A stretch of 64,000 nt of DNA from an uncultured Gammaproteobacteria bacterium. Lineage in GTDB: Bacteria; Myxococcota_A; UBA796; JAJRTE01. The notes under the pieces are model-generated. The model was not told the origin of the DNA and made no database searches. It was given only the letters and a program-made list of their open reading frames with translations. Shown one piece after another: positions 5,218 through 35,362 of the stretch. Within the stretch, counting starts at the first letter, position 1. Each line of letters opens with the position of its first letter. A program made the position numbers and the translations under genes. Location of the stretch: NCBI GenBank assembly GCA_964418585.1, contig CAYQMG010000072.1, positions 19,121-83,120 of the forward strand, written 5' to 3'.

Positions 5218-5421
5218 CGCTACCTCTCGTTTTCGGTTTTCTTCAGCCCACGGCGGGGAGTACAGGACATCGCCCCCGGATCGACCACGCCGGGAAGCAG
5301 CTTCCTCACCCGCTCGACAGACCAGCCCCGCGCCGGGGTACGCCACCCCCTACGGTTCCGGACCGTCACGAGTTCCAGGCTAGATACCCTGACCGATCTG
5401 GTTCCGTCAAGGCAAATCGGG

Positions 5422-6906: not shown

Positions 6907-6915
6907 CGCATCCTC

Positions 6916-8454: not shown

Positions 8455-8550
8455 CGCTCTCGTACCTTTCCCCGCCTGACTTTCGGCGCCCTCACCTCGT
8501 ACCCGATGGCAGGGCAGGAAACCCGTGCCGGGCCTGCTTCCTCACTCGCT

Positions 8551-10662: not shown

Positions 10663-10665
10663 CCC

Positions 10666-10983
10666 CTATTCCCTAAGCTGGTTGAGGTTGTCGACTTCCA
10701 CGGTGCCCATCCGACGGAAAATGGCCAGAATGATGGCCAGCGCAATGGCAGCCTCGGCGGCGGCGAGCACAATGATCATTACGGCGAACACGTGGCCGGC
10801 CACCTCCGGCTCGGCAACGGACGGTCCCACGAAATTGGAGAACGCCACGAAATTGAGGTTGGCCGCGTTCAAAATCAACTCCACGCCCATCAGTATCGAC
10901 ACGGCGTTCTTGCGCGTCAGCACACAGTAGAGCCCGAGGCTGAACAGAACCGCCGCGACGGTCAAGACGGATTGCACAGTCAT
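10666..10983 (-). CDS. nuoK: NADH-quinone oxidoreductase subunit K
   Basis: MTVQSVLTVAAVLFSLGLYCVLTRKNAVSILMGVELILNAANLNFVAF... (105 aa, ND4L-like). It lies inside the longer listed ORF 10666..11493, and its start overlaps the nuoJ stop by 4 nt. Confidence 0.8.
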   Translation of the reverse strand: MTVQSVLTVAAVLFSLGLYCVLTRKNAVSILMGVELILNAANLNFVAFSNFVGPSVAEPEVAGHVFAVMIIVLAAAEAAIALAIILAIFRRMGTVEVDNLNQLRE

Positions 10984-11516
10984 GCCCGCTCCTCCTGCGC
11001 CGGTCCGGCGGTCCCCGCGGTCTTCGGGTGCGTCCGGTGCCTCGCGATGGTTACCGCCCCCACCAGCACCGCAAGCAACAGGATCGCGGCCACCAGAAAC
11101 GCCGGCAGGTAGGTGCTCAACAAATTCTCTCCAATCAGCGGCGTGATACTCTCGTGCTCGAGGTGCGTGTCTGATGGAATCCCCTCCCAGATCCCAAAGA
11201 GCAACATCCCAAGCGTCGCTGCACTGATCACTGCCGCCGCTGCCGGGTTCATGGACTGGTTGCTGATGTTCACGTCGCGAATGCGATGGGTCAGCATCAC
11301 AGCAAAAAGCACCAACACCATCACGCCGCCCACGTAGACCATCATCTGCACGACAGCCAGGAAATCTGCACCCATCATGCCAAACAGCCCCGCAACACCG
11401 ATGAGCGCACCCAGCAACGCAAAGGCGGAACGGACGATGTTGTGCGAAAACGCAGTCACACCGGCCGCCGCAATCGTGAAGGCGGCAACACAAAAAAAGA
11501 TCACTGAGTTCAGCAT
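10980..11516 (-). CDS. nuoJ: NADH-quinone oxidoreductase subunit J
   Basis: 178-aa ND6-like membrane subunit (MLNSVIFFCVAAFTIAAAGV...). Confidence 0.8.
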   Translation of the reverse strand: MLNSVIFFCVAAFTIAAAGVTAFSHNIVRSAFALLGALIGVAGLFGMMGADFLAVVQMMVYVGGVMVLVLFAVMLTHRIRDVNISNQSMNPAAAAVISAATLGMLLFGIWEGIPSDTHLEHESITPLIGENLLSTYLPAFLVAAILLLAVLVGAVTIARHRTHPKTAGTAGPAQEERA

Positions 11517-11577
11517 GAGACCTGTTTCACTCGTTTCGTCCCGGGCCCCTCGCCGGTTCCCGGACAGGTTCGCTCAT

Positions 11578-12213
11578 CTATCCCTTCCCTTCCTTTTCCC
11601 GCGGGGCGCTCGAGCCCTTCCCACCCGCGCCGCCGGCCTCCCCCTCCGTCGGGACCTCGATCTCCCCCGGTGTCCACTGCACATACTCCGCATCCCAGGG
11701 CTTGAGAAGCTGCTCCACAATCGACCCGGACGGTGGCATCTCCGGTACCGGCGTCCCCTTCTTGTGCTTGTAGGGCACCACCGGCTTGTCCACGAAATGC
11801 AACACCAGGTTCCGAATATCCCGTGCACTGGCCTCGAACACCGGTGTGTGGTGCAAACACCCCGTCGGACACGCCTCCGTACACAGACCGCAGTACATGC
11901 ACTTCGAAATGTCGATGTCGAACCGGGTCAGCAACCGCCCCTTCCCACTCGGGTGCTTCTTGGTCTCCACCAGGATCACGTCGATGGGACAGGCCCGCGC
12001 ACAGGCGCTGCACGCGGTGCACGCCGGGATGTGCACCTCCAGGATGCCCCTGAACCGCCCGGGCAGCATGCTCTTGACCGGCTCGGGCGTCCGATCCGGA
12101 TACTGGATGGTGATCGGTCGCCGAAACATCCAGGAAAGCGTCACGGCCATCCCTTCGAAAATCGTCACGGCGGCGTTCTTGATGTTTTCGACGTATGACG
12201 CAACACTGCCCAT
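11578..12213 (-). CDS. nuoI: NADH-quinone oxidoreductase subunit I (2x[4Fe-4S] ferredoxin-like)
   Basis: Two CxxCxxCxxxCP motifs (CTACSACARACP, CMYCGLCTEACP). Gly/Glu-rich C-terminal tail. Confidence 0.85.
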   Translation of the reverse strand: MGSVASYVENIKNAAVTIFEGMAVTLSWMFRRPITIQYPDRTPEPVKSMLPGRFRGILEVHIPACTACSACARACPIDVILVETKKHPSGKGRLLTRFDIDISKCMYCGLCTEACPTGCLHHTPVFEASARDIRNLVLHFVDKPVVPYKHKKGTPVPEMPPSGSIVEQLLKPWDAEYVQWTPGEIEVPTEGEAGGAGGKGSSAPREKEGKG

Positions 12214-12214
12214 G

Positions 12215-13423
12215 TCAAATCAACCACTTGTAGACGGGTGTATCCTTGCCGGACCTGATGTTGTACCACGCCCGCCAGAACATGCCGGCCACCAGCGCGG
12301 CCCCGGCCAGCGTAAGCAGGACACTCACGGCCCCGGTGACCCAGGTTGGCACGGCTGCTGCAACCAGTTGCCAGACCAGGGAGAAGACGACCAGACCGAT
12401 TCCGATCGGCACGAAATACTTCCAGCACATCATCATCAACTGGTCCACCCGGAGGCGAGGCAATGTCCAGCGCAGCCAGATGGTGACGGAAACCAGGATG
12501 GATGCCTTGGCGATGAAGATGGCAGCCCCGAGCAACTGGAGCCAGAGGTTGTTGGTCTGAGTGGCGAGGTCCACCCCCGGGATCCGCCAGCCGCCCAGGA
12601 ACACAGCGGTGATGACGGCGCCGATGACATAGAGGTTCCCCCACTCCGCGAAGGCGAAGAAAAGGAACCGCATTCCGGAATACTCGGTATTGTACCCGGA
12701 GACCAACTCGCTCTCGGCTTCGGGCAGGTCGAACGGAGTCCGATTGCCCTCGGCCAGGGAGGCCACGAAGTAGACGAAGAACGCCACGAAGGTTGCCGGG
12801 GAGAAGAAGACGAGCCACTGCCACGGCCATCCTCCCTGGTGCTCGATGATTCCCTGGAGCGACAGGCTTCCCCCGGGGATGATGGCGGTAAGCAGGGCCA
12901 TGCCCGCTGCGACTTCGTAGCTGACCATCTGTGCAGCGGAACGGATCCCACCGAGCAGTGCCCACTTCGAGTTGCTGGCCCAACCGCTCATGATGATGCC
13001 TGTGACCACCAGCGCGGTGACCGCCAGCAAGTAGACGATCCCCACGTCGAGGTCCGCGCCCACGATCCACGGTCCGAAAGGAAGCACCACAAAGGTGAGG
13101 AAGACTCCGGCGAACACCGGGTAGACGGCGAGACGGAAGAGGATCCTGTCCGCGTCGTTCGGAATCAGATCCTCCTTCAGGAAGTTCTTCATGCCGTCCG
13201 CAAGCCACTGGAGGAAGCCCTGCGGTCCCACCCGGTTGGGTCCGATCCGGCACTGCATGCGGCCGGCGACCCGGCGCTCGATCCAGGTGACGGGCCCTGC
13301 GAACGCGGCGAAGAACCCGATCATCAGGATACCGTACCCGATGACCAGAATCGCGAAGGCCAGTTCGGGATGGGCGCTGGCAAAGCTCCATTCCGACTTC
13401 AAGTACTCGAAAAAGTCGCCCAT
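12215..13423 (-). CDS. nuoH: NADH-quinone oxidoreductase subunit H
   Basis: 402-aa ND1-like protein. Its start codon shares a nucleotide with the nuoD stop (13423). Confidence 0.85.
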   Translation of the reverse strand: MGDFFEYLKSEWSFASAHPELAFAILVIGYGILMIGFFAAFAGPVTWIERRVAGRMQCRIGPNRVGPQGFLQWLADGMKNFLKEDLIPNDADRILFRLAVYPVFAGVFLTFVVLPFGPWIVGADLDVGIVYLLAVTALVVTGIIMSGWASNSKWALLGGIRSAAQMVSYEVAAGMALLTAIIPGGSLSLQGIIEHQGGWPWQWLVFFSPATFVAFFVYFVASLAEGNRTPFDLPEAESELVSGYNTEYSGMRFLFFAFAEWGNLYVIGAVITAVFLGGWRIPGVDLATQTNNLWLQLLGAAIFIAKASILVSVTIWLRWTLPRLRVDQLMMMCWKYFVPIGIGLVVFSLVWQLVAAAVPTWVTGAVSVLLTLAGAALVAGMFWRAWYNIRSGKDTPVYKWLI

Positions 13424-14568
13424 TATCTGTCAATCTCCGGTGCAATCACGTCGAGACTCGCAATCAGGACGACGAGGTCGGCAATCATCAACCCCTTCGA
13501 CGCATGCTCGATGATCGACGTGGCCGTGAAGGATCCTGCCCGAATCTTCACCCGGTAGGGCTTGTCTTTCCCGTCCGAGATCACGTGGTATCCCAGCTCA
13601 CCTCGAGCGCTCTCGACCGCGGCATAGGCCTCCCCCTTGGGGGGCTTGAGCTTCCTCGGCACCTTGGCCATGATGTCCCCTTCAGGGATTCCCGCCAGGG
13701 CCTGACGGAGTATCTTGACACTCTCCATCATCTCCTCGACCCGGACCACGAACCGGTCGTAGGCGTCCCCAAGCGTACCGCGGACCCCCCGCCCCACACA
13801 CACTTTGAAGTCGAACTCGGGATAAGCCGAGTAAGGAAGGTCCCGCCGGAGGTCCCAGTCGACCCCGCTTCCCCGCAAGTTCGGTCCGACCAGCCCGTAG
13901 GACTTGGCTGTCTCGGCATCGATGATGGCCACGTTGGCACACCGCTTGACCAAAATCTCGTTGACCGTGATCAAGCGGTTGAATTCTTCCATCAATGGCT
14001 CAAACGTGTCGAGGAAGGAAAGGATCTTCCTGTCCAGCCCCGCGGGAATGTCGAAAGCCACCCCGCCCACCCGGACGTAGTTGTAGGTCAGGCGGGCTCC
14101 GCACAACTCCTCGATGATGTCGTTGAGCTTTTCCCGTTCCCGGATGCCGTGCAGGAACGGAGTGAACGCCCCGATGTCCATCGCCATGGCGCCCACCCCG
14201 ATGAGGTGGCTCGCGATCCGGTTCAACTCCGACACGATCACCCGCAAGTACTCGGCCCGTCGCGGCACCTCCAGCCCCAACAACCGCTCCACGGCCAGGG
14301 CATACCCGTGGTTGGCAAACATGGCGGCCAGGTAGTCCACCCGGTCGGTGAATGGCACAAACGACGGATAGGGCATGCCCTCCGCAAGCTTCTCTATGCC
14401 ACGGTGCAGGTAACCCACATGGGGCACGGCCCGTTGCATCACCTCACCGTCCCCGGTGATGATGAACCGAATGACCCCGTGCGTACTCGGGTGCTGAGGC
14501 CCCATGTTCAGGATCATGAGGTCGTCGGACACCGACTGCTTGCTCTGTGTGCTGTCCATCACAGTCAA
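13423..14568 (-). CDS. nuoD: NADH-quinone oxidoreductase subunit D (49-kDa subunit)
   Basis: [35 protein letters not shown]...: classic NuoD. Followed directly by nuoH with no nuoE/F/G in between. Confidence 0.9.
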
Positions 14569-15074
14569 TACTTCCCCAGGGCTTTGTCACGCGTCGTCGG
14601 AATCCCGTGATAGTCGGGCTCTTCCTTGTAATCTTTCCGCAACGGATGGCCCACCCAGTCATCCGGCATGAGCAGACGCCGGAGGTCCGAATGTCCTTCG
14701 AAATAGACCCCCAGCAGATCGTAGACCTCCCGCTCGTGCCAGTTCGCGGTGGCCCAGATCCCTTCCACCGTGTGCACAGAAGGCTCGTCCCGGTCCAGCT
14801 TCACCTTGACCGCCATCACTTCCCGGTGGGCATACGACATCATCACGTATGCCAACTGAATGTGATCCTGGAAATCGGTCCCGGTGATGCAGCTCAACTG
14901 CTCGAAAGCAAGCTCCGGAGTATCGTGCAGGTACCGACACACATCCACCACGGCCTCTGGTCGGACGTACACACCCAGCAAAAGACCGGGTCGACCGGCA
15001 TCCCGCTCGTCCGCCCCCTCGACCGCGTCTCCAAACTTCTCCTGGAGCCTGGCAACCGTTTCCTCGAATGTCAT
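14565..15074 (-). CDS. nuoC: NADH-quinone oxidoreductase subunit C (30-kDa subunit)
   Basis: 169 aa, NuoC-like. Separate from nuoD (not fused). 4-nt overlap with the nuoD start. Confidence 0.85.
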
Positions 15075-15075
15075 G

Positions 15076-15651
15076 TCAGGCCCTCTTCACGATTCCGCCT
15101 TTCCCCAACTGGGGACGAGGCTCGGTCCGCGTGGTCATCTTCCGATGCCAGTTCTCGGACATGATGATGTTCTGGATCTTCATCATTGCGTCCGCAAGCG
15201 CTTCCGGCCTCGGTGGACATCCGGGCAGGTACAGGTCGACCGGCACGATGAGGTCCACCCCTTTGAGCACGGAATAGGACTTCTGGAACAGGCCGCCGCA
15301 ACTGGCGCACGATCCCATGGCGATGACGTACTTGGGTTCCGCCATCTGGTCGTACAAAAGCTTCACCCGTTCGGCCATCTTGTACGTGATGGTTCCGGCC
15401 ACGAGCATCAGGTCCGCCTGCCGAGGCGAGGCGCGAAACACCATTCCGAACCGATCCAGGTCCGTCCGCGGTCCACCGGTCTGCATCATCTCGATTCCAC
15501 AGCAGGCCGTGGCAAACAGCAGATACCAGAGAGAGTGCTTGCGGGGGAGGTTCAGCAGGTAGTTCACCTTGCCCCACACCACGCCCCCTTGTCCGGGCGC
15601 ACCCTCGAAGCCTGCTTCGACGACCTGGGGACTGCCTACTTCTTCAACCAC
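15076..15651 (-). CDS. nuoB: NADH-quinone oxidoreductase subunit B (PSST/20-kDa, [4Fe-4S] N2)
   Basis: CCGIEMM...GSCASCGG...CPPRP motifs. Preferred start is a GTG near 15651 preceded by GGAGA, overlapping the nuoA 3' end by about 16 nt. The alternative ATG at 15735 would overlap nuoA by 100 nt. Confidence 0.75.
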
Positions 15652-16031
15652 TCGAGGTCTCCTTTCCCCCAAACATATGCCAGCCCCAACGAGAGAGGGC
15701 TGAGGAAGAACAGAATCGCGCCCACGGCCGCCCACTTGTCCGGGCTCCCGGCATCACCCGGGCCGCCCACATGATTGGAAATCACCGACAGCGGTGGGAA
15801 CAGCACGGCGAGTGCCACATCGAAAACGAGGAAGATAATCGCGATGATGTAGAACCGGGGATTGAAGTTGAACCAGGCTGAAACGAATGGGCGTTCACCA
15901 CATTCGTAGATTGTCCCCTTGTCCTTGTTCGGCACTCGAGGCCGCAAGAAATGGCCTGCCAGCAGCGCCGCGAACACGAAGCCAGCACCGATGGCGAGGA
16001 AAACAAGGACGGTCAGGAATTCTGGGTTCAT
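15636..16031 (-). CDS. nuoA: NADH-quinone oxidoreductase subunit A
   Basis: [32 protein letters not shown]... (ND3-like) from the ATG at 16031 with a GGGAGGGG RBS. The listed ORF extends further upstream, but that extension lacks an RBS. Confidence 0.8.
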
Positions 16032-16141
16032 AATCGTGCCCCTCCCGGGTGACTGCCCTCGATCCGACCACGCCAGGCGAAAACGTACCTGCATGGGGCC
16101 GACACCCCACCGACCGATACCCATGCCCGCGCGAGAAGCTG

Positions 16142-16170
16142 TCAATAAAACAATATCCAGGCGATGTCAA
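16142..16170 (-). promoter_or_regulatory. Candidate sigma70 promoter for the nuo operon (TTGACA-17-TATTGA on the minus strand) inside an AT-rich island
   Basis: On the + strand this reads tcaata...tgtcaa at about 16142-16147 and 16165-16170. The reverse complement gives a perfect -35 TTGACA, a 17-nt spacer and a TATTGA -10, about 110 nt upstream of the nuoA ATG. The island also carries a TGTCAA direct repeat. Confidence 0.35.
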
Positions 16171-16478
16171 GCAAAAAACCCCACCGAGCAGGAATGTTGC
16201 AGCCACGCGAAGTTACATCGGAAAAGAATCCCGTTTCTCCCCCTGCCACCAGTCAGCGTCCAACAGGACATCTCACTCGCCCCCCCCTCGGTATCCCGGC
16301 AACCGTTGCTATTGCGTTCCGGCCTCCAGAATGGTAGCTTGAACCCGACCATCCCAAACCGGTCCATGATTCTTCCGGCACACTTCGCCGGAGGCGCGTT
16401 GCAAACGAGGCATCGGCAGCCTTTCCAGGCCGCACGGTGTTGCCAGGGATTCAGTTTCTATCTCCAGGAGTATCACTC

Positions 16479-19034
16479 ATGAGTCATATTCACGAAAACG
16501 AAGCCGCGGAACACGCGGCGCCGACCCTGTCGCTCCACGAGCGAAGCCCGTTCCTGACCGAGGCGCAACTGAAAGCGGAACTGTCCAAGTGCGAGTTCTG
16601 CGAAGAAAAACCCTGCCTCGAGGCCTGTCCATGCCACTGCTCGCCCGCAGACTTCATCCACGCAGCCCAGGTCGGCCTTCCTTCCGACATCCGCCGCGCA
16701 GCCGCCGAAATCATGACCCGAAACCCCCTCGGGGGCGTGTGCGGCATGGTTTGCCCGGACCATCACTGCATGGCAGCATGCGTGCACAAGAAACTCGATG
16801 GTGCAGTGGACATTCCCCAGGTGCAGGCCGCCCTGGTCCAGAAAGCCAAGGATCTGGGGGTGATGCCCGAACTGGCTTCGCCAACGCCGTCGGGCAGGCG
16901 CGTGGCAGTGATCGGTGGAGGTCCGGCAGGACTGGCGGCGGCCGGGACTCTGGCCCAACGGGGCCACGAGGTGACCTTGTTTGAGCGGGACGACCGTCTG
17001 GGCGGCATGTGTCTGTGCATCCCCGAATTCCGACTGGAACGTTCCGTTCTGGAGAGCGACATCGACTGGCTGATTTCTCAGACCGGTGTGCGGGTGGAAC
17101 TGGGTACCGAGGTTGGGTCGCCCACCGAACTGCTGTCCGAGGGGTACGACGCGGTGGTGGTGGCCACTGGACTCTGGGAGCCGATCCGACTCGGGATACC
17201 CGGGGAGGAACTGGCCACGGCGGCCACGGATTTCCTCAAGCATCCCGAACAGATCGACGTATCCGGTCGCGTGGCGGTCATCGGTGGCGGCGCCACGGCG
17301 TACGACTGCGCGGTGACAGCGATGGCCCAGGGAGCGGCCCGGGTCGAAATGTTCGCGCTGGAGAACCTCGCCGAAATGCCCCTCACCGAGAAGGAGATGA
17401 AGGGGCTGGTGAGCAGCGGGGTGGACGTGGGGGGGCGTGTCCAGGTCACCGAAATTCTCCAGGCGGGAGGCAAGATAACCGGTCTCCGGACCCGCAAGGT
17501 GAGCCTGCCTCGAGGCAAGACCTTCCATCCCACGCACATGGTCCCGGTCCCGGGCACGGAAACCCGGAGGGATGACTTCGATACAGTCATCATCGCCATT
17601 GGCCTCCGCTCCGGATTCCCTCGGGTGGAAGATCCCCGTGTGGTCTACGCAGGAGATTGCGCCGAAGGTCCGACCACGGTGGTGGAGGCGTCGGCGTCGG
17701 GCAAGAACGCTGCCGACGTGGTCGAGGCGATTTTCCAGGCGTCTCCCAGGCCGAGCTTCCCGAGGAACAAAAGTGGCCATGTCAAGAGCCGGGCACTGGT
17801 TCCGGGCTACGACACCCGACCGGTCGGGCTCGAGGCCGAATTCTTCGGCCGGCCCATCGAGACGCCCTTCCTCCTTTCGGCCGCCCCGCCCACCGACGGC
17901 CTCGAGCAGATGCGCAAGGCCTATGCGGCGGGATGGTCCGGGGGCATCATGAAAACCGCATTCGACGGGATCCCCATCCACATCCCCGAACGGTACATGT
18001 TCACCTTTGACAAGAACACCTACGCGAATTGCGACAACGTGTCCGGTCACCCCCTCGACCGCATGTGCCGGGAAATCGAGCAACTGGTCAAGGAGTTCCC
18101 GGACCGCCTCACCCTCGGCTCCACCGGGGGCCCGGTCACCGGAGACGACGAAGCGGACGCCCGCCAGTGGCAGAGCAACTCCCGCAAGCTGGAAAATGCG
18201 GGGGCCATGGGCATCGAGTTCAGCCTGTCGTGCCCGCAAGGAGGCGACGGGACCGAGGGCGACATCGTGTCTCAAAATGCGGCCCTGACCGCCAAGATCA
18301 TCGACTGGGTCCTTTCCACCGGCGACGGGAACGTGCCCAAGCTGTTCAAGTTGACCGGGGCGGTCACCTCGGTCGCAGCCATCGTGGCGGCCGCTCGAGA
18401 GGTCTTCGAGCGATATCCGGACAAGAAGGCCGGGATCACCCTCGCCAACAGCTTCCCCACCCTGGCGTTCCGCAAGGGGAACAAGCCGACGTGGGAAGAA
18501 GGTATCATCGTGGGGGCCAGCGGCGCCGGCATCCTCAACATCAGCTACCTCTCCCTCGCCAAGGTCGCCCACCTCGGCGTCACCGTGTCCGGAAACGGCG
18601 GCCCCATGGACTACAAGGCCGCGGCCGACTTCCTCGCCCTCGGTGCACGCACAGTCCAGTTCTGCACCATCGTAATGAAATACGGTTACGGCATCATCGA
18701 CCACCTCACCTCTGGCCTCAGCCACCTCATGGCCGACCGGGGCATCTCGAGCGTGCAGGAACTGATCGGGATCGCATTGCCAGACCCCATCACCGATTTC
18801 ATGGACCTCTCACCGGTCAAGAAGGTCTCCCAACCCATCCGCGATCTGTGTCTCCAGTGCGGCAACTGCACCCGCTGCCCCTATCTGGCCATCTCCATGG
18901 ACGCGGATGGATTCCCGGTGACCGACCCGTCCCGGTGCGTCGGATGTGGGATCTGCGCCCTCAAGTGCTTCGCATCGGCCATCGAAATGCGCGAGCGCAC
19001 GCCCGAAGAGGCCGCGGCGCTCAAGGAGTTCTGA
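16479..19034 (+). CDS. Dihydropyrimidine-dehydrogenase-type flavin/Fe-S oxidoreductase, fused GltD/PreT-like plus DHOD/PreA-like (YgfK-like)
   Basis: N-terminal 2x[4Fe-4S] Cys clusters (CEFCEEKPCLEACPC, CGMVCPDHHCMAAC). Two dinucleotide-binding motifs (VAVIGGGPAGLAAA, VAVIGGGATAYDCA). DHOD-like TIM barrel. C-terminal 2x[4Fe-4S] ferredoxin (CLQCGNCTRCP, CVGCGICALKC). ATG at 16479 with CAGGAG RBS; the listed ORF opens on an upstream TTG. ssnA follows 19 nt downstream, as ygfK-ssnA do in E. coli. Confidence 0.75.
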   Translation: MSHIHENEAAEHAAPTLSLHERSPFLTEAQLKAELSKCEFCEEKPCLEACPCHCSPADFIHAAQVGLPSDIRRAAAEIMTRNPLGGVCGMVCPDHHCMAACVHKKLDGAVDIPQVQAALVQKAKDLGVMPELASPTPSGRRVAVIGGGPAGLAAAGTLAQRGHEVTLFERDDRLGGMCLCIPEFRLERSVLESDIDWLISQTGVRVELGTEVGSPTELLSEGYDAVVVATGLWEPIRLGIPGEELATAATDFLKHPEQIDVSGRVAVIGGGATAYDCAVTAMAQGAARVEMFALENLAEMPLTEKEMKGLVSSGVDVGGRVQVTEILQAGGKITGLRTRKVSLPRGKTFHPTHMVPVPGTETRRDDFDTVIIAIGLRSGFPRVEDPRVVYAGDCAEGPTTVVEASASGKNAADVVEAIFQASPRPSFPRNKSGHVKSRALVPGYDTRPVGLEAEFFGRPIETPFLLSAAPPTDGLEQMRKAYAAGWSGGIMKTAFDGIPIHIPERYMFTFDKNTYANCDNVSGHPLDRMCREIEQLVKEFPDRLTLGSTGGPVTGDDEADARQWQSNSRKLENAGAMGIEFSLSCPQGGDGTEGDIVSQNAALTAKIIDWVLSTGDGNVPKLFKLTGAVTSVAAIVAAAREVFERYPDKKAGITLANSFPTLAFRKGNKPTWEEGIIVGASGAGILNISYLSLAKVAHLGVTVSGNGGPMDYKAAADFLALGARTVQFCTIVMKYGYGIIDHLTSGLSHLMADRGISSVQELIGIALPDPITDFMDLSPVKKVSQPIRDLCLQCGNCTRCPYLAISMDADGFPVTDPSRCVGCGICALKCFASAIEMRERTPEEAAALKEF

Positions 19035-19053
19035 CTTTTTCAGGAGGAGTTGC

Positions 19054-20379
19054 ATGAGCAAGTTGTTGATAAAGCACGGCACCGTCGTCACCCTGGGTGA
19101 GAACAACCAGGTCATCCACGACGGGGCCGTCCTGATCGAAGACGACAAGATCATCGGCGTGGGGCCCACTTCCGCACTCGAAGCTTCCTTCCAGGACGGA
19201 GAGGTCATCGACGCACGCAACCAGGTGGTCATGCCCGGGTTCATCTGCGCCCACCACCACCTCTACAGCACCATGGCTCGAGGATTCGCCCCTCCAGGAG
19301 AGCCGGCGGTGACGTTTGGGGAGATCCTGGAACGACTCTGGTGGCGTCTCGACCGGGCGCTCACCCCCGAGGATGTCACCTACAGCGCCCTGGTGCCGCT
19401 CATCGAGTGTATCAGGAACGGGACCACCACCATCCTGGACCACCACGCGAGCCCTTCTTGCCGAGACGGAAGCCTCGACCTGCTCGCCGACGCCGTGCTC
19501 CAGGCAGGAATCCGGGCCTCGCTCTGCTACGAGGTCTCGGACCGGAACGAACCGGGCGCCGGAGTCCAGGAGAACGCGCGGTTCCTGGAGAGGCTCCAGC
19601 ATGAAAAGACCGACCAACTGGCCGGCATGGTGGGTATCCACGCGTCGTTCACCGTTTCCGACCGCACCCTCGAGCAGTGCCGCTCGGTGGGCGAACGCTA
19701 CGGGGTCGGATATCACATCCACGTGGCCGAGGGCGTCGAAGACCACCAGCATGCGCTCGAGCACCATCATGTGCGCACGGTGAAGCGCCTGGTGGACCGG
19801 GGGATTTGCGGAGAGGGTTCGCTGTTCATCCATTGCATTCACATTGACGACCACGAAATGGACCTCATCCGGGACACCGGAACCATTGTGGTTCACAACC
19901 CCGAATCCAACATGAACAACGCCGTGGGGGTGGCTCGAGTCCTGGAGATGATGGACAAGGGTATCCTCGTCGGACTGGGCACGGACGGGATGTCCTCGGA
20001 CATGCCTGCCCAGATGCGCTGCGCCTACCTGCTCCACCGGCTCGAAAAACGGGACCCTCGAGTCGCTTTCGTGGAGGCACCTCAGATGCTCCTGTTCAAC
20101 AACGCCCGCATCGCCAACCGATTCTTCCCGGTCAAGCTCGGGAGCATCGAGGTGGGAGCAGCGGCGGACCTGGCCTTGCTCGACTATCTGCCGCCCACGG
20201 AATTCAACTCGAGCAACTTCCTCGGGCACTTCATCTTCGGGATGGTGGATGCCACGGTGGACACCACGATCGCCCGGGGGAAGGTGCTGATGCGCAACAA
20301 GCAGATCCTGGTGCTTGACGAGGAGCGGATCGCGGCACGGAGCCGCGAACTGGCTGCCGGGGTCTGGGAGCGGTTCTAG
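19054..20379 (+). CDS. ssnA: Putative aminohydrolase SsnA (amidohydrolase superfamily)
   Basis: Long stretches are near-identical to E. coli SsnA (ILERLWWRLDRAL...ILDHHASP...). ATG at 19054 with AGGAGG RBS. About 441 aa. Confidence 0.85.
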   Translation: MSKLLIKHGTVVTLGENNQVIHDGAVLIEDDKIIGVGPTSALEASFQDGEVIDARNQVVMPGFICAHHHLYSTMARGFAPPGEPAVTFGEILERLWWRLDRALTPEDVTYSALVPLIECIRNGTTTILDHHASPSCRDGSLDLLADAVLQAGIRASLCYEVSDRNEPGAGVQENARFLERLQHEKTDQLAGMVGIHASFTVSDRTLEQCRSVGERYGVGYHIHVAEGVEDHQHALEHHHVRTVKRLVDRGICGEGSLFIHCIHIDDHEMDLIRDTGTIVVHNPESNMNNAVGVARVLEMMDKGILVGLGTDGMSSDMPAQMRCAYLLHRLEKRDPRVAFVEAPQMLLFNNARIANRFFPVKLGSIEVGAAADLALLDYLPPTEFNSSNFLGHFIFGMVDATVDTTIARGKVLMRNKQILVLDEERIAARSRELAAGVWERF

Positions 20380-20401
20380 GAAGCGGAACGGGAGGCCGCG
20401 A

Positions 20402-21607
20402 TCAGGGCATCTGCAATACCTTCGCGGCCTTTGCCACCGCCAGGTCAATCTCTTCCCGGGTCACAACAAGCGGCGGGGCGAAACGGATCACGTTCTCGTG
20501 GGTCTCTTTGCAGAGGACGCCTTCGTCCATCAACGCCTCGCAGAACCGACGGGCGCCACCGGCGGAAGGCTTCAGCACCACGCCGATGAGCAGGCCCTTG
20601 CCCCGAACATGGTCCACATGGGGACTGTCGATGGCCCGCAAGCGGGTCATGAAATAGTCTCCAAGCTCTGCGGCCCGACCCGGCAAGTCGTCACGGACCA
20701 GAATCTCGATCGCCTTCCGGCCCACTGCACAGGCGAGGGGATTGCCTCCGAAAGTGGAACCGTGCTCGCCCGGCGTGAACAACCCCAGCACTTCGGACCG
20801 ACCGACCACCGCGGAGACGGGGAGCAGCCCACCCCCCAGGGCTTTGCCCAGGGTCATCATGTCCACGACGACATCCTCGTGCTGGAAAGCGAACATCTTG
20901 CCCGTCCGGCCCAGTCCGGTCTGAATCTCGTCCACCACCAGCAATACCTGGTGCTGGTCACACAGGGCACGCACCTTCCGGAGATAGCCTTCGGGTGGTA
21001 CCACCACACCGGCCTCCCCCTGGATGGGCTCCACCAGAAACGCCACCGTGTTCGGCGTGACAGCGGCCTCGAGTGCGTCCAGATCTCCATAGGGAACCAC
21101 CTTGAATCCCGGGGTAAACGGGCCGAAATCCTCCCGATAGAGCGTCTCCGTGGAAAAGGAGACCACCGTGGTGGTCCGTCCGTGGAAGTTGTTCTCACAC
21201 ACAATGATCTCGGCATCGTACCGGGGAACCCCCTTGACGCGATAGCCCCACTTGCGGGCCGCCTTGATCGCAGTCTCCACCGCCTCGGCCCCGGTATTCA
21301 TCGGGAGCATGAGGTCCATTCCGCACAGCTCACACAGTTCTCGAGCAAACGGACCTAGCTGATCGTTGTGAAAGGCCCGTGAGGTCACGGCCACCCGTGC
21401 AGCCTGTTCGACCAGGGTGGCGATCAGCTCCGGATGGCTGTGCCCGTGGCTCATGGCCGAGTAGGCGCTCAGCATGTCCATGTACCGCCGACCCTCCACG
21501 TCGGTAACCCAGACACCCTGGGCTCGAGCAATCACCACGGGCAGGGGGTGGTAGTTGTGGGCGCTATAGGCCTCTGTCAATGTCACGAGTTCTCGAGTGG
21601 TTGCCAT
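20402..21607 (-). CDS. rocD: Ornithine aminotransferase (class-III PLP aminotransferase)
   Basis: MATTRELVTLTEAYSAHNYHPLPVVIARAQGVWVTDVEGRRYMDMLSAYSA... and the rest track B. subtilis RocD closely. ATG at 21607 with CAGGAG RBS; the listed ORF opens upstream without support. Confidence 0.8.
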   Translation of the reverse strand: MATTRELVTLTEAYSAHNYHPLPVVIARAQGVWVTDVEGRRYMDMLSAYSAMSHGHSHPELIATLVEQAARVAVTSRAFHNDQLGPFARELCELCGMDLMLPMNTGAEAVETAIKAARKWGYRVKGVPRYDAEIIVCENNFHGRTTTVVSFSTETLYREDFGPFTPGFKVVPYGDLDALEAAVTPNTVAFLVEPIQGEAGVVVPPEGYLRKVRALCDQHQVLLVVDEIQTGLGRTGKMFAFQHEDVVVDMMTLGKALGGGLLPVSAVVGRSEVLGLFTPGEHGSTFGGNPLACAVGRKAIEILVRDDLPGRAAELGDYFMTRLRAIDSPHVDHVRGKGLLIGVVLKPSAGGARRFCEALMDEGVLCKETHENVIRFAPPLVVTREEIDLAVAKAAKVLQMP

Positions 21608-21748
21608 GACGACTCCTGAGACACGCCGGACTCCCAACGTCCGGGGGGACCGTGGTGTTCGACGTGCGGACAAGGCCCTGCCGCCTCGAGACTCCTGCGG
21701 ATCAAGCACGTTGCCACGAGGAGCTGGAGGTCGGCAAAGCGTGTGGGT

Positions 21749-22669
21749 TCATTCTCCCATCAGCAGAAGCATGATCGCTTTCTGGGTGTGCAGCCGGTTT
21801 TCGGCCTGATCGAAGATCACCGACCGCTCATGATCACAGACCTCGTCGGTGACCTCTTCGCCCCGATGAGCAGGAAGGCAGTGCATGAAGATGGCGTCCT
21901 CCTTGGCCCGGGCGAACAGGTCCATGTTCACCTGGAATCCAGCGAAGTCGCGCAAGCGCTTTTCCCGCTCCGCTTCCTGGCCCATGGAAGCCCAGACATC
22001 GGTGTAGACCACATCCGCCCCCTGGACGGCCGTGGTGGGGTCGTTGGTCACCTCGACGCGGACGCCACGCCGGGCCGCGTCGTCCGCGACCGCGTCCAGG
22101 ACCTGCGGGGAAGGCTCATACCCTGTGGGCGATGCGACCGCAATGTGCATTCCCACCTTGACTGCCCCGGCGATGAGAGAGTGGGCCATGTTGTTGCCGT
22201 CGCCGATGTAGGCGATCTTGCGACCGGCAAGGTCTCCCTTGTGCTCGCGGATGGTGAAGTAGTCGCACAGGGCCTGGCAGGGGTGCACCTCGTCATCCAA
22301 CCCGTTGATCACCGGCACGGTTCCGTACCGGGCGAGGTCGAGGATGTCCTGGTGAGCAAAGACTCGAGCCATGATTCCGTCCACGTAGCGGGAGAGGACT
22401 CGAGCGGTATCGGCGATGGTCTCGCCCCGGCCCAGTTGGAGGTCGCGGGCACCGAGGAACAGGGCGTGACCGCCCAACTGGAACATGCCCACCTCGAAGG
22501 AGACGCGGGTTCGCGTGGACGATTTCTGGAACAGCATGCCCAGGGTCTTGCCTTGAAGTCGCTGGGCATAGGCGCCGGGGTCGTCCTTGACGGCCCGGGT
22601 CAAGGTGAGGATTTCCTCCACGTCCTCGAAAGTGAGGTCACGTATCGTAAGCAAGTGTCTGGCGTTCAT
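21749..22669 (-). CDS. argF: Ornithine carbamoyltransferase
   Basis: STRTR carbamoyl-phosphate motif, HCLP motif and OTC-type ornithine-binding region (DxxxSMG). About 306 aa from ATG 22669 (MNARHLLTIRDLT...). Whether it is anabolic or catabolic (arcB-like) cannot be decided from sequence. Confidence 0.8.
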   Translation of the reverse strand: MNARHLLTIRDLTFEDVEEILTLTRAVKDDPGAYAQRLQGKTLGMLFQKSSTRTRVSFEVGMFQLGGHALFLGARDLQLGRGETIADTARVLSRYVDGIMARVFAHQDILDLARYGTVPVINGLDDEVHPCQALCDYFTIREHKGDLAGRKIAYIGDGNNMAHSLIAGAVKVGMHIAVASPTGYEPSPQVLDAVADDAARRGVRVEVTNDPTTAVQGADVVYTDVWASMGQEAEREKRLRDFAGFQVNMDLFARAKEDAIFMHCLPAHRGEEVTDEVCDHERSVIFDQAENRLHTQKAIMLLLMGE

Positions 22670-22837
22670 GGCGAAAAGCTCTCCTCCGCTATGCCGACGG
22701 TCGGGAACGGCGACGCCCTCCGAGGGTGTCGCGCCCCGCCAGGCGGGAACACGAGTCAGGCGCACCCAAGTATTCTGAAAACGAGCCAACATTCAAGACC
22801 AAAGCGACTCCTCCGGTACCGTGGAGGGGCGCCGGTG

Positions 22838-22862
22838 GGGCCGAGCCCGTTTTTTTTGTTCC
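22838..22862 (+). terminator. Intrinsic-terminator-like hairpin (GGGC-cga-GCCC) followed by T8, in the leader of the PLP-enzyme/ygeW operon: candidate attenuator
   Basis: gggccgagcccgttttttttg on the + strand, preceded by a second 7-bp stem (ctcctcc...ggagggg). A T8 run is exceptional at this GC content. It lies about 160 nt upstream of the 23023 ATG, with no + strand gene upstream to terminate. Confidence 0.3.
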
Positions 22863-23022
22863 ATTTCCGTTCAGTCATGCTACCTTACCAGCTTTGTCGA
22901 AGAATCTGGCCAGTTCGAAAATGCGTGGATGGGCGCAGGCGGACTGGACATCCGGAGCGGTCGTGAAGGATCGGCCTGTCTGGACCCCATCCACCTCGAG
23001 GCACACCATCGAAGGGAGCGTC

Positions 23023-24513
23023 ATGAAACACCGAATCATCGAGAACATTCGCGAAGACGTGCTGAAGAAATCGATTCAACGAGCCCGGGTGCGGGGCGTC
23101 ATTCTTCCCCGATTTGCGGAGCAAAAGGACCCGAGCCTGGTGCCGGCGAAGATCGTGGAAAAGCTGGCCGACGTGGGCCTGTGGGACGTGAACCCTCTGA
23201 ATCTGTTCCGGATCACGTGGTACAATGAGCCGAAGGCCCATGGCGGCGGATTCGGGGAGGGGAACTGGATCGAGTTCCCGCCCGAGTTGACCGGGGTGGA
23301 AGCTCGTATCGTGGGCCTGGTGGGCAAATGGTTCCCCACCGGAGCCCACAAGGTGGGCGCAGCCTACGGGTGTCTCGTGCCGCGCCTGATTTCCGGGAAT
23401 TTCGACCCCATCATGCAGAAGGCGGTCTGGCCGTCCACGGGCAACTACTGTCGAGGTGGGGCCTATGACTGTGCACTCCTGGCCTGCCCGGCCATCGCCA
23501 TCCTGCCCGAGGGGATGAGCCGCGAGCGTTTCGACTGGCTGCGAGAGATCGGGACGGACGAAATCATCGCCACCCCTGGGACGGAATCGAACGTGAAGGA
23601 GATCTACGACATGTGCTGGGAACTCCGCAAGGAGCGGGGTGATGAAATCGTAATCTTCAACCAGTTCGAGGAGTTTGGCAACGCGATCTGGCACTATCAC
23701 ATGACCGGGTCCGTTGTGGAGCACATTTTCGAGCACCACATCAAGACCGAGCGCAGCCGGTTGTCCGGGTACATCAGTGCCACCGGTTCGGCGGGCACCA
23801 TTGCGGCGGGGGACTATCTCCGGACCCGGTATCCTGGGATCCGGGTGACCGCCAGTGAGGCGTTGCAGTGTCCGACGCTCTACCAGTTTGGCTTTGGAGA
23901 GCACCGAATCGAGGGAATTGGTGACAAGCACGTGCCCTGGATCCACAACGTGAAGAACACCGACATGGTGTGCGCGGTGGACGACGAGCAGACCATGCGG
24001 CTCCTGCGCCTGTTCAACGAGGACGCCGGGCGCGATGTGCTGGTGGAGCGCGGAGTGGACGCGGCCGTGGTCGATCAACTTCCACTCCTCGGTATCTCCA
24101 GCATTTGCAACCTGGTTGCAGCCATCAAGACCGCCAGGTACTACGACATGGACGGCCGTGATGTCCTGTTCACACCGCTCACCGACTCCACGGAGCTTTA
24201 CGGTTCCCGAATCCAGGAGGCCCGTGAGCAGTTCGGGGCCTACACCCGCACCGATGCACTGGTGGATGCGGCCCGGTACCTGGATGGAACCAACACGGAT
24301 CACATGAGAGAGCTGACCTATCACGACCGCAAGGCCCTGCACAACTTCAAGTATTTCACCTGGATCGAGCAGCAAGGACGCACTTCGGACGAGCTGCATG
24401 AACTGTGGGACGACGATTTCTGGGCCGAGATTTTCTCCCAGGAACAGATCGATGAATGGGACCGGTTGATCGAGCAGTTCAACGAGGCCACCGGGTTGCT
24501 GAAGAACCTGTGA
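23023..24513 (+). CDS. Fold-type-II PLP-dependent enzyme, tryptophan-synthase-beta-like (GAHK lysine motif), unknown specificity
   Basis: PTGAHKVGAAYG (PLP-Lys motif of TrpB-like enzymes) and STGNYCRGGAYDCALL (Gly-rich phosphate loop). 496 aa from ATG 23023 with GAAGGGAG RBS. 39 nt upstream of ygeW on the same strand. Confidence 0.6.
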   Translation: MKHRIIENIREDVLKKSIQRARVRGVILPRFAEQKDPSLVPAKIVEKLADVGLWDVNPLNLFRITWYNEPKAHGGGFGEGNWIEFPPELTGVEARIVGLVGKWFPTGAHKVGAAYGCLVPRLISGNFDPIMQKAVWPSTGNYCRGGAYDCALLACPAIAILPEGMSRERFDWLREIGTDEIIATPGTESNVKEIYDMCWELRKERGDEIVIFNQFEEFGNAIWHYHMTGSVVEHIFEHHIKTERSRLSGYISATGSAGTIAAGDYLRTRYPGIRVTASEALQCPTLYQFGFGEHRIEGIGDKHVPWIHNVKNTDMVCAVDDEQTMRLLRLFNEDAGRDVLVERGVDAAVVDQLPLLGISSICNLVAAIKTARYYDMDGRDVLFTPLTDSTELYGSRIQEAREQFGAYTRTDALVDAARYLDGTNTDHMRELTYHDRKALHNFKYFTWIEQQGRTSDELHELWDDDFWAEIFSQEQIDEWDRLIEQFNEATGLLKNL

Positions 24514-24552
24514 GCCGGACCGAGCCCGGTACGAGATAGAAGGAGCAGTGCG

Positions 24553-25746
24553 ATGAAAGAACGAATACGAACGTTGATCGACCAACTCGCCGACACGCCG
24601 ACCGGCCTGTACCAGAAGGATTTCCTTCTCACCTGGAACCAAACCGACGCCGACCTCCGGGCCGTGCTGTTGGCCACCGAGATCCTCGAGGCATTCTACC
24701 GGGCCAACATCGATGCACGCACGTTCCGCGGTTCTTTGGCCGTCTCCCTGTTCCGCGACAAGTCCACCCGGACGCGCTTTTCGTTCGCCAGTGCGGCCAG
24801 CTTGCTCGGCCTCTCACTCATGGATCTCGACGAGACCAAGTCCCAGGTGGCGCACGGTGAAACGGTGCGCGAGACCGCCAACATGATCTCCTTCCTCACC
24901 GAGGTGATCGGGATTCGGGACGACATGTTCATCGGCGAGGGACACGAGTACATGGCCGAGGTTTCCCGGTCGGTGGAGGCCGGGTTCGCCGAAGGCGTGC
25001 TTCCGCAACGACCGGCGGTCATCAACCTGCAATGCGACCGGGATCACCCCACCCAGTCGATGGCCGACCTCATGCACCTGGTCAAGACCTTCGGGTCGCT
25101 CGAGGCACTCCGGGGCAAGAAGATCGCCATGACCTGGGCCCACTCGCCATCCTACGGAAAGCCGCTCTCGGTCCCCCAGGGCATCATCGGACTCATGACT
25201 CGCTTCGGCATGCACGTGACTCTCGCCCACCCGGAAGGGTATGACCTGATGCCGGACATCGTGACCAAGGCCGAGGCATTCGCCAAGGAGTCCGGAGGCC
25301 GGTTCGAGACCACCCACAGCATGGCGGATGCGTTTGCGGACGCCGACATCGTCTACCCCAAGAGCTGGGCGCCGTTCCAGGTGATGCAGGAACGGACACG
25401 CCTGCTCCGGGCCGGAAAAGCCGCAGAACTCGACAGGCTCGAGAAGCAATGCCTGGAGGACAACGCACGGCACCGCGACTGGGAATGCACCGAGGACCTG
25501 ATGGCCCTCACCAGGCAAGGCAATGGCCTCTACATGCACTGCCTGCCTGCGGACATCACCGGCGTGAGCTGTGAAGCGGGCGAGGTCGCGGCCTCGGTAT
25601 TCGACCGGTATCGCTGGCCGACCTATCGTGAGGCGGAGCACAAGCCCTACGTCATGGCGGCGATGATCCTGCTCACCCGGTTCGAGGAGCCTGCACGTAT
25701 CCTGGGCGACCTGCTTGCCAAGGACGCCCCTCGGCGCATGCGGTGA
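24553..25746 (+). CDS. ygeW: YgeW-type (knotted) carbamoyltransferase
   Basis: 397 aa. Long stretches are near-identical to E. coli YgeW (KDFLLTW, SxFRDxSTRTRFS, KSQVAHGETVRETANMISF, LPQRPAVINLQCDxDHPTQSMADL, KKIAMTWAxSPSYGKPLSVPQGIIGLMTRFGM, LYMHCLPADI). Confidence 0.85.
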   Translation: MKERIRTLIDQLADTPTGLYQKDFLLTWNQTDADLRAVLLATEILEAFYRANIDARTFRGSLAVSLFRDKSTRTRFSFASAASLLGLSLMDLDETKSQVAHGETVRETANMISFLTEVIGIRDDMFIGEGHEYMAEVSRSVEAGFAEGVLPQRPAVINLQCDRDHPTQSMADLMHLVKTFGSLEALRGKKIAMTWAHSPSYGKPLSVPQGIIGLMTRFGMHVTLAHPEGYDLMPDIVTKAEAFAKESGGRFETTHSMADAFADADIVYPKSWAPFQVMQERTRLLRAGKAAELDRLEKQCLEDNARHRDWECTEDLMALTRQGNGLYMHCLPADITGVSCEAGEVAASVFDRYRWPTYREAEHKPYVMAAMILLTRFEEPARILGDLLAKDAPRRMR

Positions 25747-29898: not shown

Positions 29899-30795
29899 TC
29901 AATCGTTGTCCGGCAGATACCGCCCGACGAGCAAAGCGTACTTCTCCCGGATCCGGGGAGGAATCAAGGAGGGGTCCGTGATGACAGCGTGCCTGAGTGC
30001 GCCATGGGCCGGTGATGCGCCACGCTCGGCGGGGATCCTGGGCACGGCGTGGGTGATGATCTGTCTGGCCTTGGACACGTTCTCCCGCAATGTATTCACC
30101 ACCGCCTCCACGGACACGGCCTCCTCGGTTTCGTGCCAGCAATCATAGTCGGTGGCGAGGGCGAGCGTGGCGTAAGAGATTTCCGCCTCCCGCGCCAACT
30201 TGGCTTCGGGCATGTTGGTCATGCCGATCACGTCCACCCCCCAGCTACGATAGACAAGGGATTCTCCTCGAGTGGAGAACTGCGGCCCCTCGATACAAAT
30301 GTAGGTGCCTCCCCGGTGAACCGGAATCCCCAGAGAAATCCCGGTCTCGTAGAGGATGTCGGCCAGGAGCGGGCAGACGGGGTCTGCCATCGACACGTGC
30401 ACGACCAGCCCGTCACCGAAAAACGAGGTCTCCCGCCGATAGGTGCGGTCGATGAACTGGTCCACCACCACCACGTCTCCTGGGTGGATGTCCTCCTTCA
30501 TGCTGCCCACGGCACTTACCGAAATGAGGTGGGTGACGCCCAGGTATTTCATTCCGTAGATGTTGGCCCGGTAGTTCACCTCCGAGGGAGCGAACCGGTG
30601 GCCGCGACCGTGGCGGGGGAGGAAGACCATTTTGACCCCTCCCAGTTCCCCGATCAGATACTCGTCGGAAGGATCCCCAAAAGGCGTGGTGACCTTCTGC
30701 GTTCGCAGGTTCTCGAGGCCATCCAACGTGTACAGTCCACTGCCGCCAATCACGCCGATCGTGGGGGATTCCACGATTCTCGCTCCTTCTTGCAT
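29899..30795 (-). CDS. mtnP: S-methyl-5'-thioadenosine phosphorylase
   Basis: IGVIGGSGLY...GVKMVFLPRHGRGHRF...HLISVSAVGS...: MTAP/PNP-family signatures. ATG at 30795 with GGGAGG RBS. Confidence 0.8.
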   Translation of the reverse strand: MQEGARIVESPTIGVIGGSGLYTLDGLENLRTQKVTTPFGDPSDEYLIGELGGVKMVFLPRHGRGHRFAPSEVNYRANIYGMKYLGVTHLISVSAVGSMKEDIHPGDVVVVDQFIDRTYRRETSFFGDGLVVHVSMADPVCPLLADILYETGISLGIPVHRGGTYICIEGPQFSTRGESLVYRSWGVDVIGMTNMPEAKLAREAEISYATLALATDYDCWHETEEAVSVEAVVNTLRENVSKARQIITHAVPRIPAERGASPAHGALRHAVITDPSLIPPRIREKYALLVGRYLPDND

Positions 30796-30830
30796 CGATT
30801 CCTCCCGTTGCACCGAGAACTTTCAGGCCA

Positions 30831-35333: not shown

Positions 35334-35362
35334 AAACCGCCTCGAGCGTCGGCCCGCCTTTG

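Follow-up and report, generated by a model that had tools for sequence, protein, structure and literature searches.

A Dihydropyrimidine Dehydrogenase-Type Reductase Beside SsnA and a CysK-Like Enzyme Beside YgeW in a Probable Split Variant of the Reductive Uric-Acid Pathway

We analyzed a 64,000-nucleotide stretch of DNA, hereafter the window, from an uncultured Gammaproteobacteria bacterium (NCBI GenBank assembly GCA_964418585.1, contig CAYQMG010000072.1, positions 19,121 to 83,120 of the forward strand). Six genes within 16.4–25.7 kb of the window include ssnA and ygeW, which belong to the reductive uric-acid pathway. The locus is a split variant of this now-known pathway, incomplete within the window. 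Its novelty lies in a reductase of dihydropyrimidine dehydrogenase (DPD) architecture paired with SsnA and, more importantly, in a conserved CysK-like pyridoxal phosphate (PLP) enzyme beside YgeW, which appears to occupy the usual place of YgeX in many environmental bacteria. A first-pass annotation had proposed a non-canonical variant of the anaerobic uric-acid (ygf/yge-type) family and had singled out the coupling of the PLP enzyme to YgeW as informative; the comparative context bears out both points.

The pathway was reconstituted by Liu et al. (2025) and Li et al. (2025), whose work was accompanied by a commentary. XdhD/XdhAC, reported to be a Se-dependent Mo hydroxylase, converts urate to 2,8-dioxopurine. 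YgfK (in C. difficile, the short PydA-like UacX) and SsnA then yield ureidomethylhydantoin, from which HyuA forms 2,3-diureidopropionate. YgeW phosphorolyzes one ureido group of this compound to carbamoyl phosphate, which YqeA uses to form ATP, while YgeY strips the second ureido group and YgeX turns 2,3-diaminopropionate into pyruvate. The YgeW reaction is reversible, and some gut strains carry carbamate kinase elsewhere on the chromosome. With 2,3-diureidopropionate phosphorolysis shown in two studies, the earlier statement that YgeW has no firmly assigned substrate is out of date. Two questions that the commentary names as open are the stereochemistry of the intermediates and the identity of the ureido group cleaved off by YgeW.

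Gene content of the locus

All six genes are real, and their GC content at the third codon position (GC3) of 0.75–0.83 is of coding type, as judged from coding-frame GC3 analysis and the listing of open reading frames (ORFs). Only 19 nt separate the reductase stop codon from the ssnA start, and 39 nt separate the PLP gene from ygeW. These gaps are the sole basis on which we assign the two pairs to operons. Between the pairs, on the opposite strand, lies an operon of argF and an ornithine aminotransferase (OAT) gene.

Table 1. Genes of the locus and further features of the window
Feature	Position	Strand	Size	Family model or remark
DPD-architecture NAD(P)H/FAD-FMN-[4Fe-4S] reductase	16479..19034	+	851 aa from ATG 16479	
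SsnA amidohydrolase	19054..20379	+	441 aa	NF005540, TIGR03314
Ornithine–oxo-acid aminotransferase (OAT; RocD-type, class-III)	20402..21607	-	401 aa	TIGR01885
Ornithine carbamoyltransferase (OTC; ArgF-type)	21749..22669	-	306 aa	NF001986, TIGR00658
CysK/CBS-like fold-type-II PLP enzyme ("PALP-494")	23023..24513	+	496 aa	PF00291
YgeW knotted carbamoyltransferase	24553..25746	+	397 aa	NF005538, TIGR03316
nuo (complex I) operon	1913..16145	-		nuoD (13423..14568), then directly nuoH (12215..13423)
MTAP-type purine nucleoside phosphorylase	29899..30822	-		TIGR01694, 317.5 vs cutoff 274.85
Overlapping long ORFs	32997..35387	both		coding-like GC3 on each strand
SelD (selenide, water dikinase)	46689..47711	+		TIGR00476, 383 bits vs cutoff 125
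Overlapping long ORFs	60129..62462	both		coding-like GC3 on each strand

The reductase ORF is open from 16338 (stop to stop) and has its earliest start codon, a GTG, at 16437, giving a protein of 851–865 aa. The ATG at 16479, with AGGAG just upstream, is the likely start. The left edge of the locus had previously been placed at 16032, about 450 nt too early, in the nuoA/intergenic region. The protein combines the Pfam domains Fer4_20 and Pyr_redox_2 with a PreA-like TIM barrel and a C-terminal 4Fe-4S dicluster, in the order N-terminal Fe-S, FAD/NAD(P)H domains, PreA-like FMN barrel, and C-terminal 2x[4Fe-4S]. Three segments of it align in the same order with pig DPD (1GT8), with the catalytic Cys ("LSCP") retained. 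The uracil-binding Asn668 of the pig enzyme is replaced by Ser.

The protein misses the cutoffs for PreA (194 vs 335), YgfK (TIGR03315, 151.7 vs 835), and the GltD-type models. We ruled out a YgfK orthologue on the basis of the TIGR03315 score and a domain order that does not match: only the GltD-like part (residues 55–428) aligns with YgfK, at 442–834/455–847 and 29% identity. The ygfK label given to the reductase earlier is thus not supported. An assignment to PreT/PreA or to mammalian DPD was likewise rejected, given the PreA score, the Asn668 substitution, and the conserved partner SsnA; the canonical PreT/PreA reductase that would have spoken against a uricolytic locus is not what lies here, with the substrate itself proposed from context.

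SsnA and YgeW are assigned at equivalog level. SsnA scores 560.9 bits against NF005540 (cutoff 444) and 526.2 against TIGR03314 (cutoff 455.5). Aligned from end to end, it shares 34% identity with the E. coli protein; with SsnA from full YgfK/Xdh clusters it shares 46–50%. For YgeW the scores are 645.3 bits (NF005538, cutoff 453) and 620.8 (TIGR03316, cutoff 500); the "very high identity" to E. coli YgeW that had been noted amounts to 61% by tblastn.

The PLP enzyme belongs to PF00291 as its sole Pfam family, and no diaminopropionate ammonia-lyase (DAPAL) model matches it. The nearest solved structures are cysteine synthases and cystathionine β-synthase (CBS). The CysK catalytic set aligns in full: the PLP lysine (Lys110), the Asn loop STGN, Gln214, the GSAGT phosphate loop, and GISS, together with the Ser facing the pyridine nitrogen that CysK also has. 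Because the best family and structure matches agree with these conserved catalytic residues, we describe the enzyme as CysK/CBS-like. Foldseek, run with the AlphaFold model, matched the fold to O-acetylserine sulfhydrylases and CBS and added nothing beyond the CysK/CBS assignment. Exact-sequence look-ups gave no record for the 496-aa protein, and for the window YgeW they gave matches on metagenome contigs lacking taxonomy and nowhere else. The enzyme had been labeled TrpB-like, which we did not retain: no TrpB model is among its NCBIfam matches, and a "GAHK" lysine motif is all that recalls TrpB. Nor is it CysK cysteine synthase itself, as the cysK equivalog model TIGR01139 gives 87.8 bits against a cutoff of 350.95; fold and catalytic residues are what the two have in common.

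The remaining pathway genes were sought across the window by tblastn with E. coli proteins and representatives of related clusters. No ygeX, ygeY, hyuA, yqeA, xdhA/D, ygfM, or ygeV was found in the 64 kb, nor was carbamate kinase or the ThrC-like gene described below, which agrees with the earlier remark that the usual companions are missing. The window thus contains SsnA, a reductase beside ssnA, and YgeW, and lacks a Mo-hydroxylase (XdhD/XdhAC, DOPDH), HyuA, YgeY, and YgeX. The position of the dearomatizing reductase beside ssnA is taken by the DPD-type enzyme, for which this activity is predicted. The Mo-hydroxylase, hydantoinase, second decarbamoylase, and carbamate kinase steps, if they exist, lie elsewhere in the genome. 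SelD is encoded in the window and indicates that the organism uses selenium, which fits a Se-dependent Mo hydroxylase elsewhere, as Liu et al. describe.

The flanks of the locus are housekeeping genes, with the nuo operon upstream and recO, mgtE, rodZ, and a tetratricopeptide repeat lipoprotein gene downstream. As nuoH directly follows nuoD, the nuo operon lacks nuoE/F/G genes. The MTAP-type purine nucleoside phosphorylase gene, 4 kb downstream of the cluster, is probably housekeeping as well. At two places in the window, long ORFs overlap on opposite strands (Table 1).

Conservation of the two gene pairs

Scanning metagenomes with an alignment of two reductase sequences gave 80 reductase loci (scan loci carry L numbers below). 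In 66 of these, ssnA follows the reductase gene, and the SsnA homologues are 45–69% identical to that of the window; after clustering at 80% identity, the adjacency holds for 19 of 28 reductase clusters. The pair is accompanied by xdh in 13 of the 80 loci and stands within gene-rich uricolytic clusters in L092, L114, L135, L138, and L141, where the two modules of the locus co-occur with xdh, ygeY, carbamate kinase, and related genes.

The same data bear on the possibility that reductase–SsnA degrades a pyrimidine or other N-heterocycle by a Pyd-like pathway, with SsnA replacing dihydropyrimidinase. The architecture and catalytic Cys are those of DPD, the 10-kb surroundings contain neither xdh nor ygeW nor ygeY in most of the 80 loci, and one lineage has only F420-biosynthesis and housekeeping neighbors. 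In L023, the gene after the reductase encodes an adenine-deaminase-like hydrolase in place of SsnA. We nevertheless judge such a pathway quite unlikely. The PreA score and the Ser at the position of Asn668 both speak against it, SsnA is a uricolytic marker enzyme that here passes its equivalog cutoff, and 13 loci have xdh beside the pair. A HyuA/dihydropyrimidinase-like gene lies within 10 kb in only 3 of the 80 loci; β-ureidopropionase was not searched for.

Two observations on these loci deserve record. The lineage just mentioned (e.g., L129, L094, L143, L144) appears to carry cofC-, cofD-, cofE-, and npdG-like genes and a luciferase-like (LLM) oxidoreductase alongside reductase–SsnA, as assigned by reading representative sequences rather than by family search. 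This neighborhood recalls the F420 variant of Li et al., here together with a DPD-type reductase. Around the stand-alone reductase–SsnA pairs, the conserved neighbors belong to F420 biosynthesis or are housekeeping genes particular to a lineage; neither transporter nor purine genes are among them. The L023 locus (L023:4530-11467), from a Verrucomicrobiia metagenome-assembled genome, comprises a DPD-type reductase (57% identical), the adenine-deaminase-like amidohydrolase, a 230-aa ORF, and a CysK-like PLP gene.

The PLP enzyme belongs to a very large and strongly conserved family. A word-index search returned at least 8000 hits, of which the best 120 are at least 73% identical, and a genome scan gave 593 confirmed matches, of which 80 loci at 58–75% identity were kept. 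At 58% identity or more, these span more than 10 phyla, with carriers in Verrucomicrobiota, Kiritimatiellia, Woeseiaceae and other Gammaproteobacteria, Planctomycetota, Elusimicrobiota, Chloroflexota, Bacteroidota, Myxococcota, and others. Core uricolytic genes flank the PLP gene in most cases: at least one in 53 of 83 loci, at least two in 41, and at least three in 33, counted over whatever flank was available. Where 8 kb could be read on both sides, 29 of 39 loci had a uricolytic neighbor. YgeX was near the PLP gene in only one locus. Distant homologues (33–43% identical) lie mostly on contigs too short to inform; one, a 42%-identical CysK-like protein, is encoded directly downstream of the molybdenum-cofactor biosynthesis gene MoaA (L173:307-2867).

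The pairing with ygeW is strictest among close relatives. In all five loci with at least 77% PLP enzyme identity (the window, L085, L086, L170, and L171), ygeW immediately follows the PLP gene, and the adjacency recurs in several Planctomycetota loci; in many others, ygeY rather than ygeW follows. The co-occurrence comparison proposed at the outset finds reductase–SsnA and PLP enzyme–YgeW to be conserved pairs that elsewhere lie inside full clusters with xdh, ygeY, and carbamate kinase.

We also weighed whether PLP enzyme–YgeW might be a self-standing module for another ureido amino acid, its nearness to reductase–SsnA being incidental, or might be biosynthetic. CysK-family enzymes are typically β-replacement synthases. 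A biosynthetic module would have the CysK-like enzyme make 2,3-diaminopropionate by β-replacement and YgeW carbamoylate it with carbamoyl phosphate, a direction consistent with the reversibility of the YgeW reaction. In L086 and L170 the pair stands alone among housekeeping genes, as does PLP enzyme–YgeY in L002 and L013, and 30 of the 83 PLP loci have no uricolytic neighbor. Against these points, the PLP gene lies inside catabolic clusters (xdh, ygfK, ssnA, ygeY, carbamate kinase) across more than 10 phyla, both modules are found together again in L092, L114, L138, and L141, and at equivalog level the YgeW of the window is orthologous to the enzyme with demonstrated activity on 2,3-diureidopropionate. 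An independent module accordingly seems improbable to us. About 8 kb from the stand-alone PLP enzyme–YgeY pair of L002 lie AllF/AllH-type genes (L002:72-2407; Pfam AllF_N, AllH; oxamate carbamoyltransferase-type).

Gene-rich clusters, defined as loci with at least four core functions, number 24. A CysK-like enzyme is encoded in 21 of them, a ThrC-like enzyme in 21, HyuA in 4, and YgeX in 1. None of the 21 with the CysK-like enzyme has YgeX, and the sole YgeX cluster, L135, has no CysK-like enzyme. The Woeseiaceae loci L007, L009, and L012 carry a complete operon of the order ygfK-ssnA-xdhBCA-PLP-ygeY-transcarbamylase-carbamate kinase-ThrC-like, bounded in L009 by isocitrate dehydrogenase and DUF2339 genes. 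In one Verrucomicrobia cluster, an Fe-S L-serine dehydratase gene lies between ygeY and ygeW (L006:12706-14079, minus strand), a hint of a serine intermediate; we rejected such an intermediate, the dehydratase being confined to this locus.

The ThrC-like enzyme emerged from de novo ORF clustering as a second unannotated partner. It is a PLP enzyme of ~415 aa with an N-terminal zinc ribbon (TIGR00260, 197.5 bits) and occurs in ~50 of ~165 related loci (e.g., L092:8554-9798, L009:14664-15908, L171:15063-16328). Its coexistence with YgeX in L135 rules it out as a YgeX replacement and points to another role. Neither the CysK-like nor the ThrC-like enzyme is mentioned in the two 2025 pathway papers. 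Li et al. colored "YgeX" according to Pfam family PF00291, a criterion that would lump both enzymes with YgeX.

Related loci also inform the part played by OTC and OAT, which the first-pass annotation had counted among the pathway enzymes. OTC exceeds its equivalog cutoffs (NF001986, 449.4 vs 306 bits; TIGR00658, 424.6 vs 280.85), and its translation carries the DxxxSMG and HCLP ornithine-binding motifs. OAT exceeds TIGR01885 (532.9 vs 378.4) and falls below the stricter NF003145 (601 vs 656). As functional partners, OTC would capture the carbamoyl phosphate from YgeW on ornithine supplied by OAT, giving citrulline and arginine rather than ATP; alternatively, OTC would phosphorolyze the second ureido group. 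The OTC gene is divergent from PLP enzyme–YgeW at a distance of 353 nt, and carbamate kinase is absent from the window. An aspartate carbamoyltransferase (ATCase)-like enzyme adjoins YgeW in L085 and L171, as do extra below-cutoff transcarbamylases in L092, L135, and L138. Carbamate kinase may, however, be encoded elsewhere, as in some gut strains. OTC is a canonical, high-scoring ArgF, and true OTC is not conserved in the related loci. Transcarbamylases that do recur there are 27–38% identical to the window OTC and are below all cutoffs or ATCase-like. None of the ~165 loci has an OAT homologue in the vicinity of the PLP enzyme or reductase gene. A partnership is therefore very unlikely in our estimation. 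The argF–OAT pair is probably an unrelated ornithine/arginine operon inserted between the modules, and its enzymes bystanders. Since YgeW has an anabolic-type carbamoyltransferase as its direct neighbor in three closely related loci (argF in the window, the ATCase-like gene in L085 and L171), OTC could at most act as a carbamoyl phosphate sink.

The ATCase-like genes (L085:12786-13739, L171:12868-13821) are convergent to ygeW and have carbamate kinase beside them. The L085 protein narrowly exceeds the TIGR00670 cutoff (238.8 vs 236.95), and the enzyme may serve as a second decarbamoylase that works by phosphorolysis. Within the stretch seen, L085 encodes two carbamate kinases and lacks ygeY.

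Proposed pathway and its standing

We regard it as moderately likely that the window encodes two modules of a variant 2,8-dioxopurine pathway of purine/uric-acid degradation, with the PLP enzyme as terminal β-eliminating lyase and an ornithine operon in between. Roles beyond SsnA and YgeW orthology are ones that we infer. In the first module, the DPD-type reductase would use NAD(P)H to reduce a pyrimidine-ring double bond of a 2,8-dioxopurine-like substrate, as YgfK/UacX does, and SsnA would open the reduced ring hydrolytically, by analogy with the formation of ureidomethylhydantoin by YgfK/UacX and SsnA. In the second, YgeW would phosphorolyze a ureido group of 2,3-diureidopropionate to carbamoyl phosphate, the activity known for the E. 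coli orthologue. The PLP enzyme would then remove the β substituent (NH3 or urea) from 2,3-diaminopropionate or 2-amino-3-ureidopropionate, and the resulting aminoacrylate would give pyruvate and NH3, the task of YgeX in E. coli.

For the PLP enzyme, the lyase role is deduced from its fold, its active-site residues, and the complementarity of its gene context. Near-exclusivity with YgeX, combined with the aminoacrylate chemistry of the CysK type, argues for a CysK-like enzyme acting as terminal lyase on a β-substituted alanine. A simple replacement of YgeX everywhere is too strong a statement, and we softened it in view of L085, where both enzymes are present.

Several findings weigh against the proposed pathway. 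With xdh, hyuA, ygeY, carbamate kinase, and the ThrC-like gene absent from the 64 kb, a complete pathway is not demonstrated, and the hydantoin-opening step is unaccounted for in most clusters that have the CysK-like enzyme. In L085, the closest relative, the PLP enzyme occurs alongside a genuine YgeX with 46% identity to the E. coli protein. About a third of the PLP loci, and most reductase–SsnA loci, lack any further uricolytic gene within 10 kb. CysK-type enzymes normally use L-amino acids, and the pathway intermediates are proposed to be D (R). The AlphaFold model of the PLP enzyme has a mean predicted local distance difference test score (pLDDT) of 70, with the active-site loops low, and so commands moderate confidence only. 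Finally, the two operons are not linked by a common operator or promoter signal. Promoter and terminator sites at 15.5–26.8 kb were no more numerous than in shuffled sequence, and an Rfam scan of the whole window found no riboswitch or other RNA family. The upstream regions of the two operons have no common k-mer of 9 nt or longer and no common palindrome, and hence give no evidence for a common operator.

A shorter route is conceivable, in which the PLP enzyme acts directly on the YgeW product and converts 2-amino-3-ureidopropionate to pyruvate, NH3, and urea, or to serine. We consider this unlikely. Were it true, the two-gene PLP enzyme–YgeW operon would end the pathway without YgeY and YgeX and, together with the ThrC-like enzyme, would define an environmental branch that proceeds mostly without HyuA and YgeX. 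The dispute over the order of ureido cleavage would likewise be settled, in favor of an intermediate whose α-amino group is free.

The wider interest of the proposed two-module pathway lies in its distribution. It was not until 2025 that the reductive uric-acid pathway was solved, for E. coli and clostridia; it is now being engineered into urate-lowering probiotics. Its genes reach environmental Verrucomicrobiota, Planctomycetota, Woeseiaceae, Bacteroidota, Chloroflexota, and other groups, where the gene set differs: some have a DPD-type reductase, most have two uncharacterized PLP enzymes, few have HyuA, and hardly any have YgeX. The CysK-like and ThrC-like enzymes are assayable candidates for the unknown steps of the pathway, and the PLP enzyme–YgeW operon bears on the ureido group removed by YgeW and on the stereochemistry of the intermediates.

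Comparison with known systems

The E. coli/Clostridium cluster (xdhD-ygfM, ygfK, ssnA, hyuA, ygeW, yqeA, ygeY, ygeX) resembles the locus in its equivalog-level SsnA and YgeW, in an Fe-S flavoreductase immediately upstream of ssnA, and in a fold-type-II PLP enzyme beside ygeW. It differs in that the window reductase has the DPD and not the YgfK domain order, the PLP enzyme is CysK-like and no diaminopropionate ammonia-lyase, the genes are split by argF–OAT, and xdh, hyuA, ygeY, ygeX, yqeA, and ygeV are missing from the 64 kb. The C. difficile variant likewise has a PydA/DPD-related reductase instead of YgfK beside SsnA. UacX, however, has no FAD/NAD(P)H domain, and the enzyme of the window is a full-length fusion as in mammalian DPD; moreover, the window has YgeW, which together with YqeA is replaced in C. 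difficile by UacY, a D-aminoacylase-like hydrolase.

With DPD (pig 1GT8; E. coli PreT/PreA), the window reductase has in common an identical five-domain order and the "LSCP" Cys. It is set apart by ~25–30% identity, a score below the PreA cutoff, the replacement of one pyrimidine-binding Asn, and a conserved genomic partner that is SsnA and not dihydropyrimidinase or β-ureidopropionase.

The PLP enzyme, in turn, resembles O-acetylserine sulfhydrylase and CBS in its core fold, its PLP lysine, its phosphate loop, the Asn loop and Gln that bind the carboxylate, and the Ser that faces the pyridine nitrogen, features that imply aminoacrylate (β-elimination/replacement) chemistry. Unlike those enzymes, to which it is ~25% identical, it falls far below the cysK cutoffs, stands in a purine-catabolism rather than a sulfur-assimilation context, and has extra conserved N-terminal (~100 aa) and C-terminal (~100–110 aa) regions. 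Like YgeX, the 2,3-diaminopropionate ammonia-lyase of the known pathway, it belongs to PF00291 and is encoded in the same neighborhood beside ygeW/ygeY; it differs in its ~20–26% identity over a short stretch and in matching no DAPAL model. In gene-rich clusters, the two are almost mutually exclusive, yet both occur in L085.

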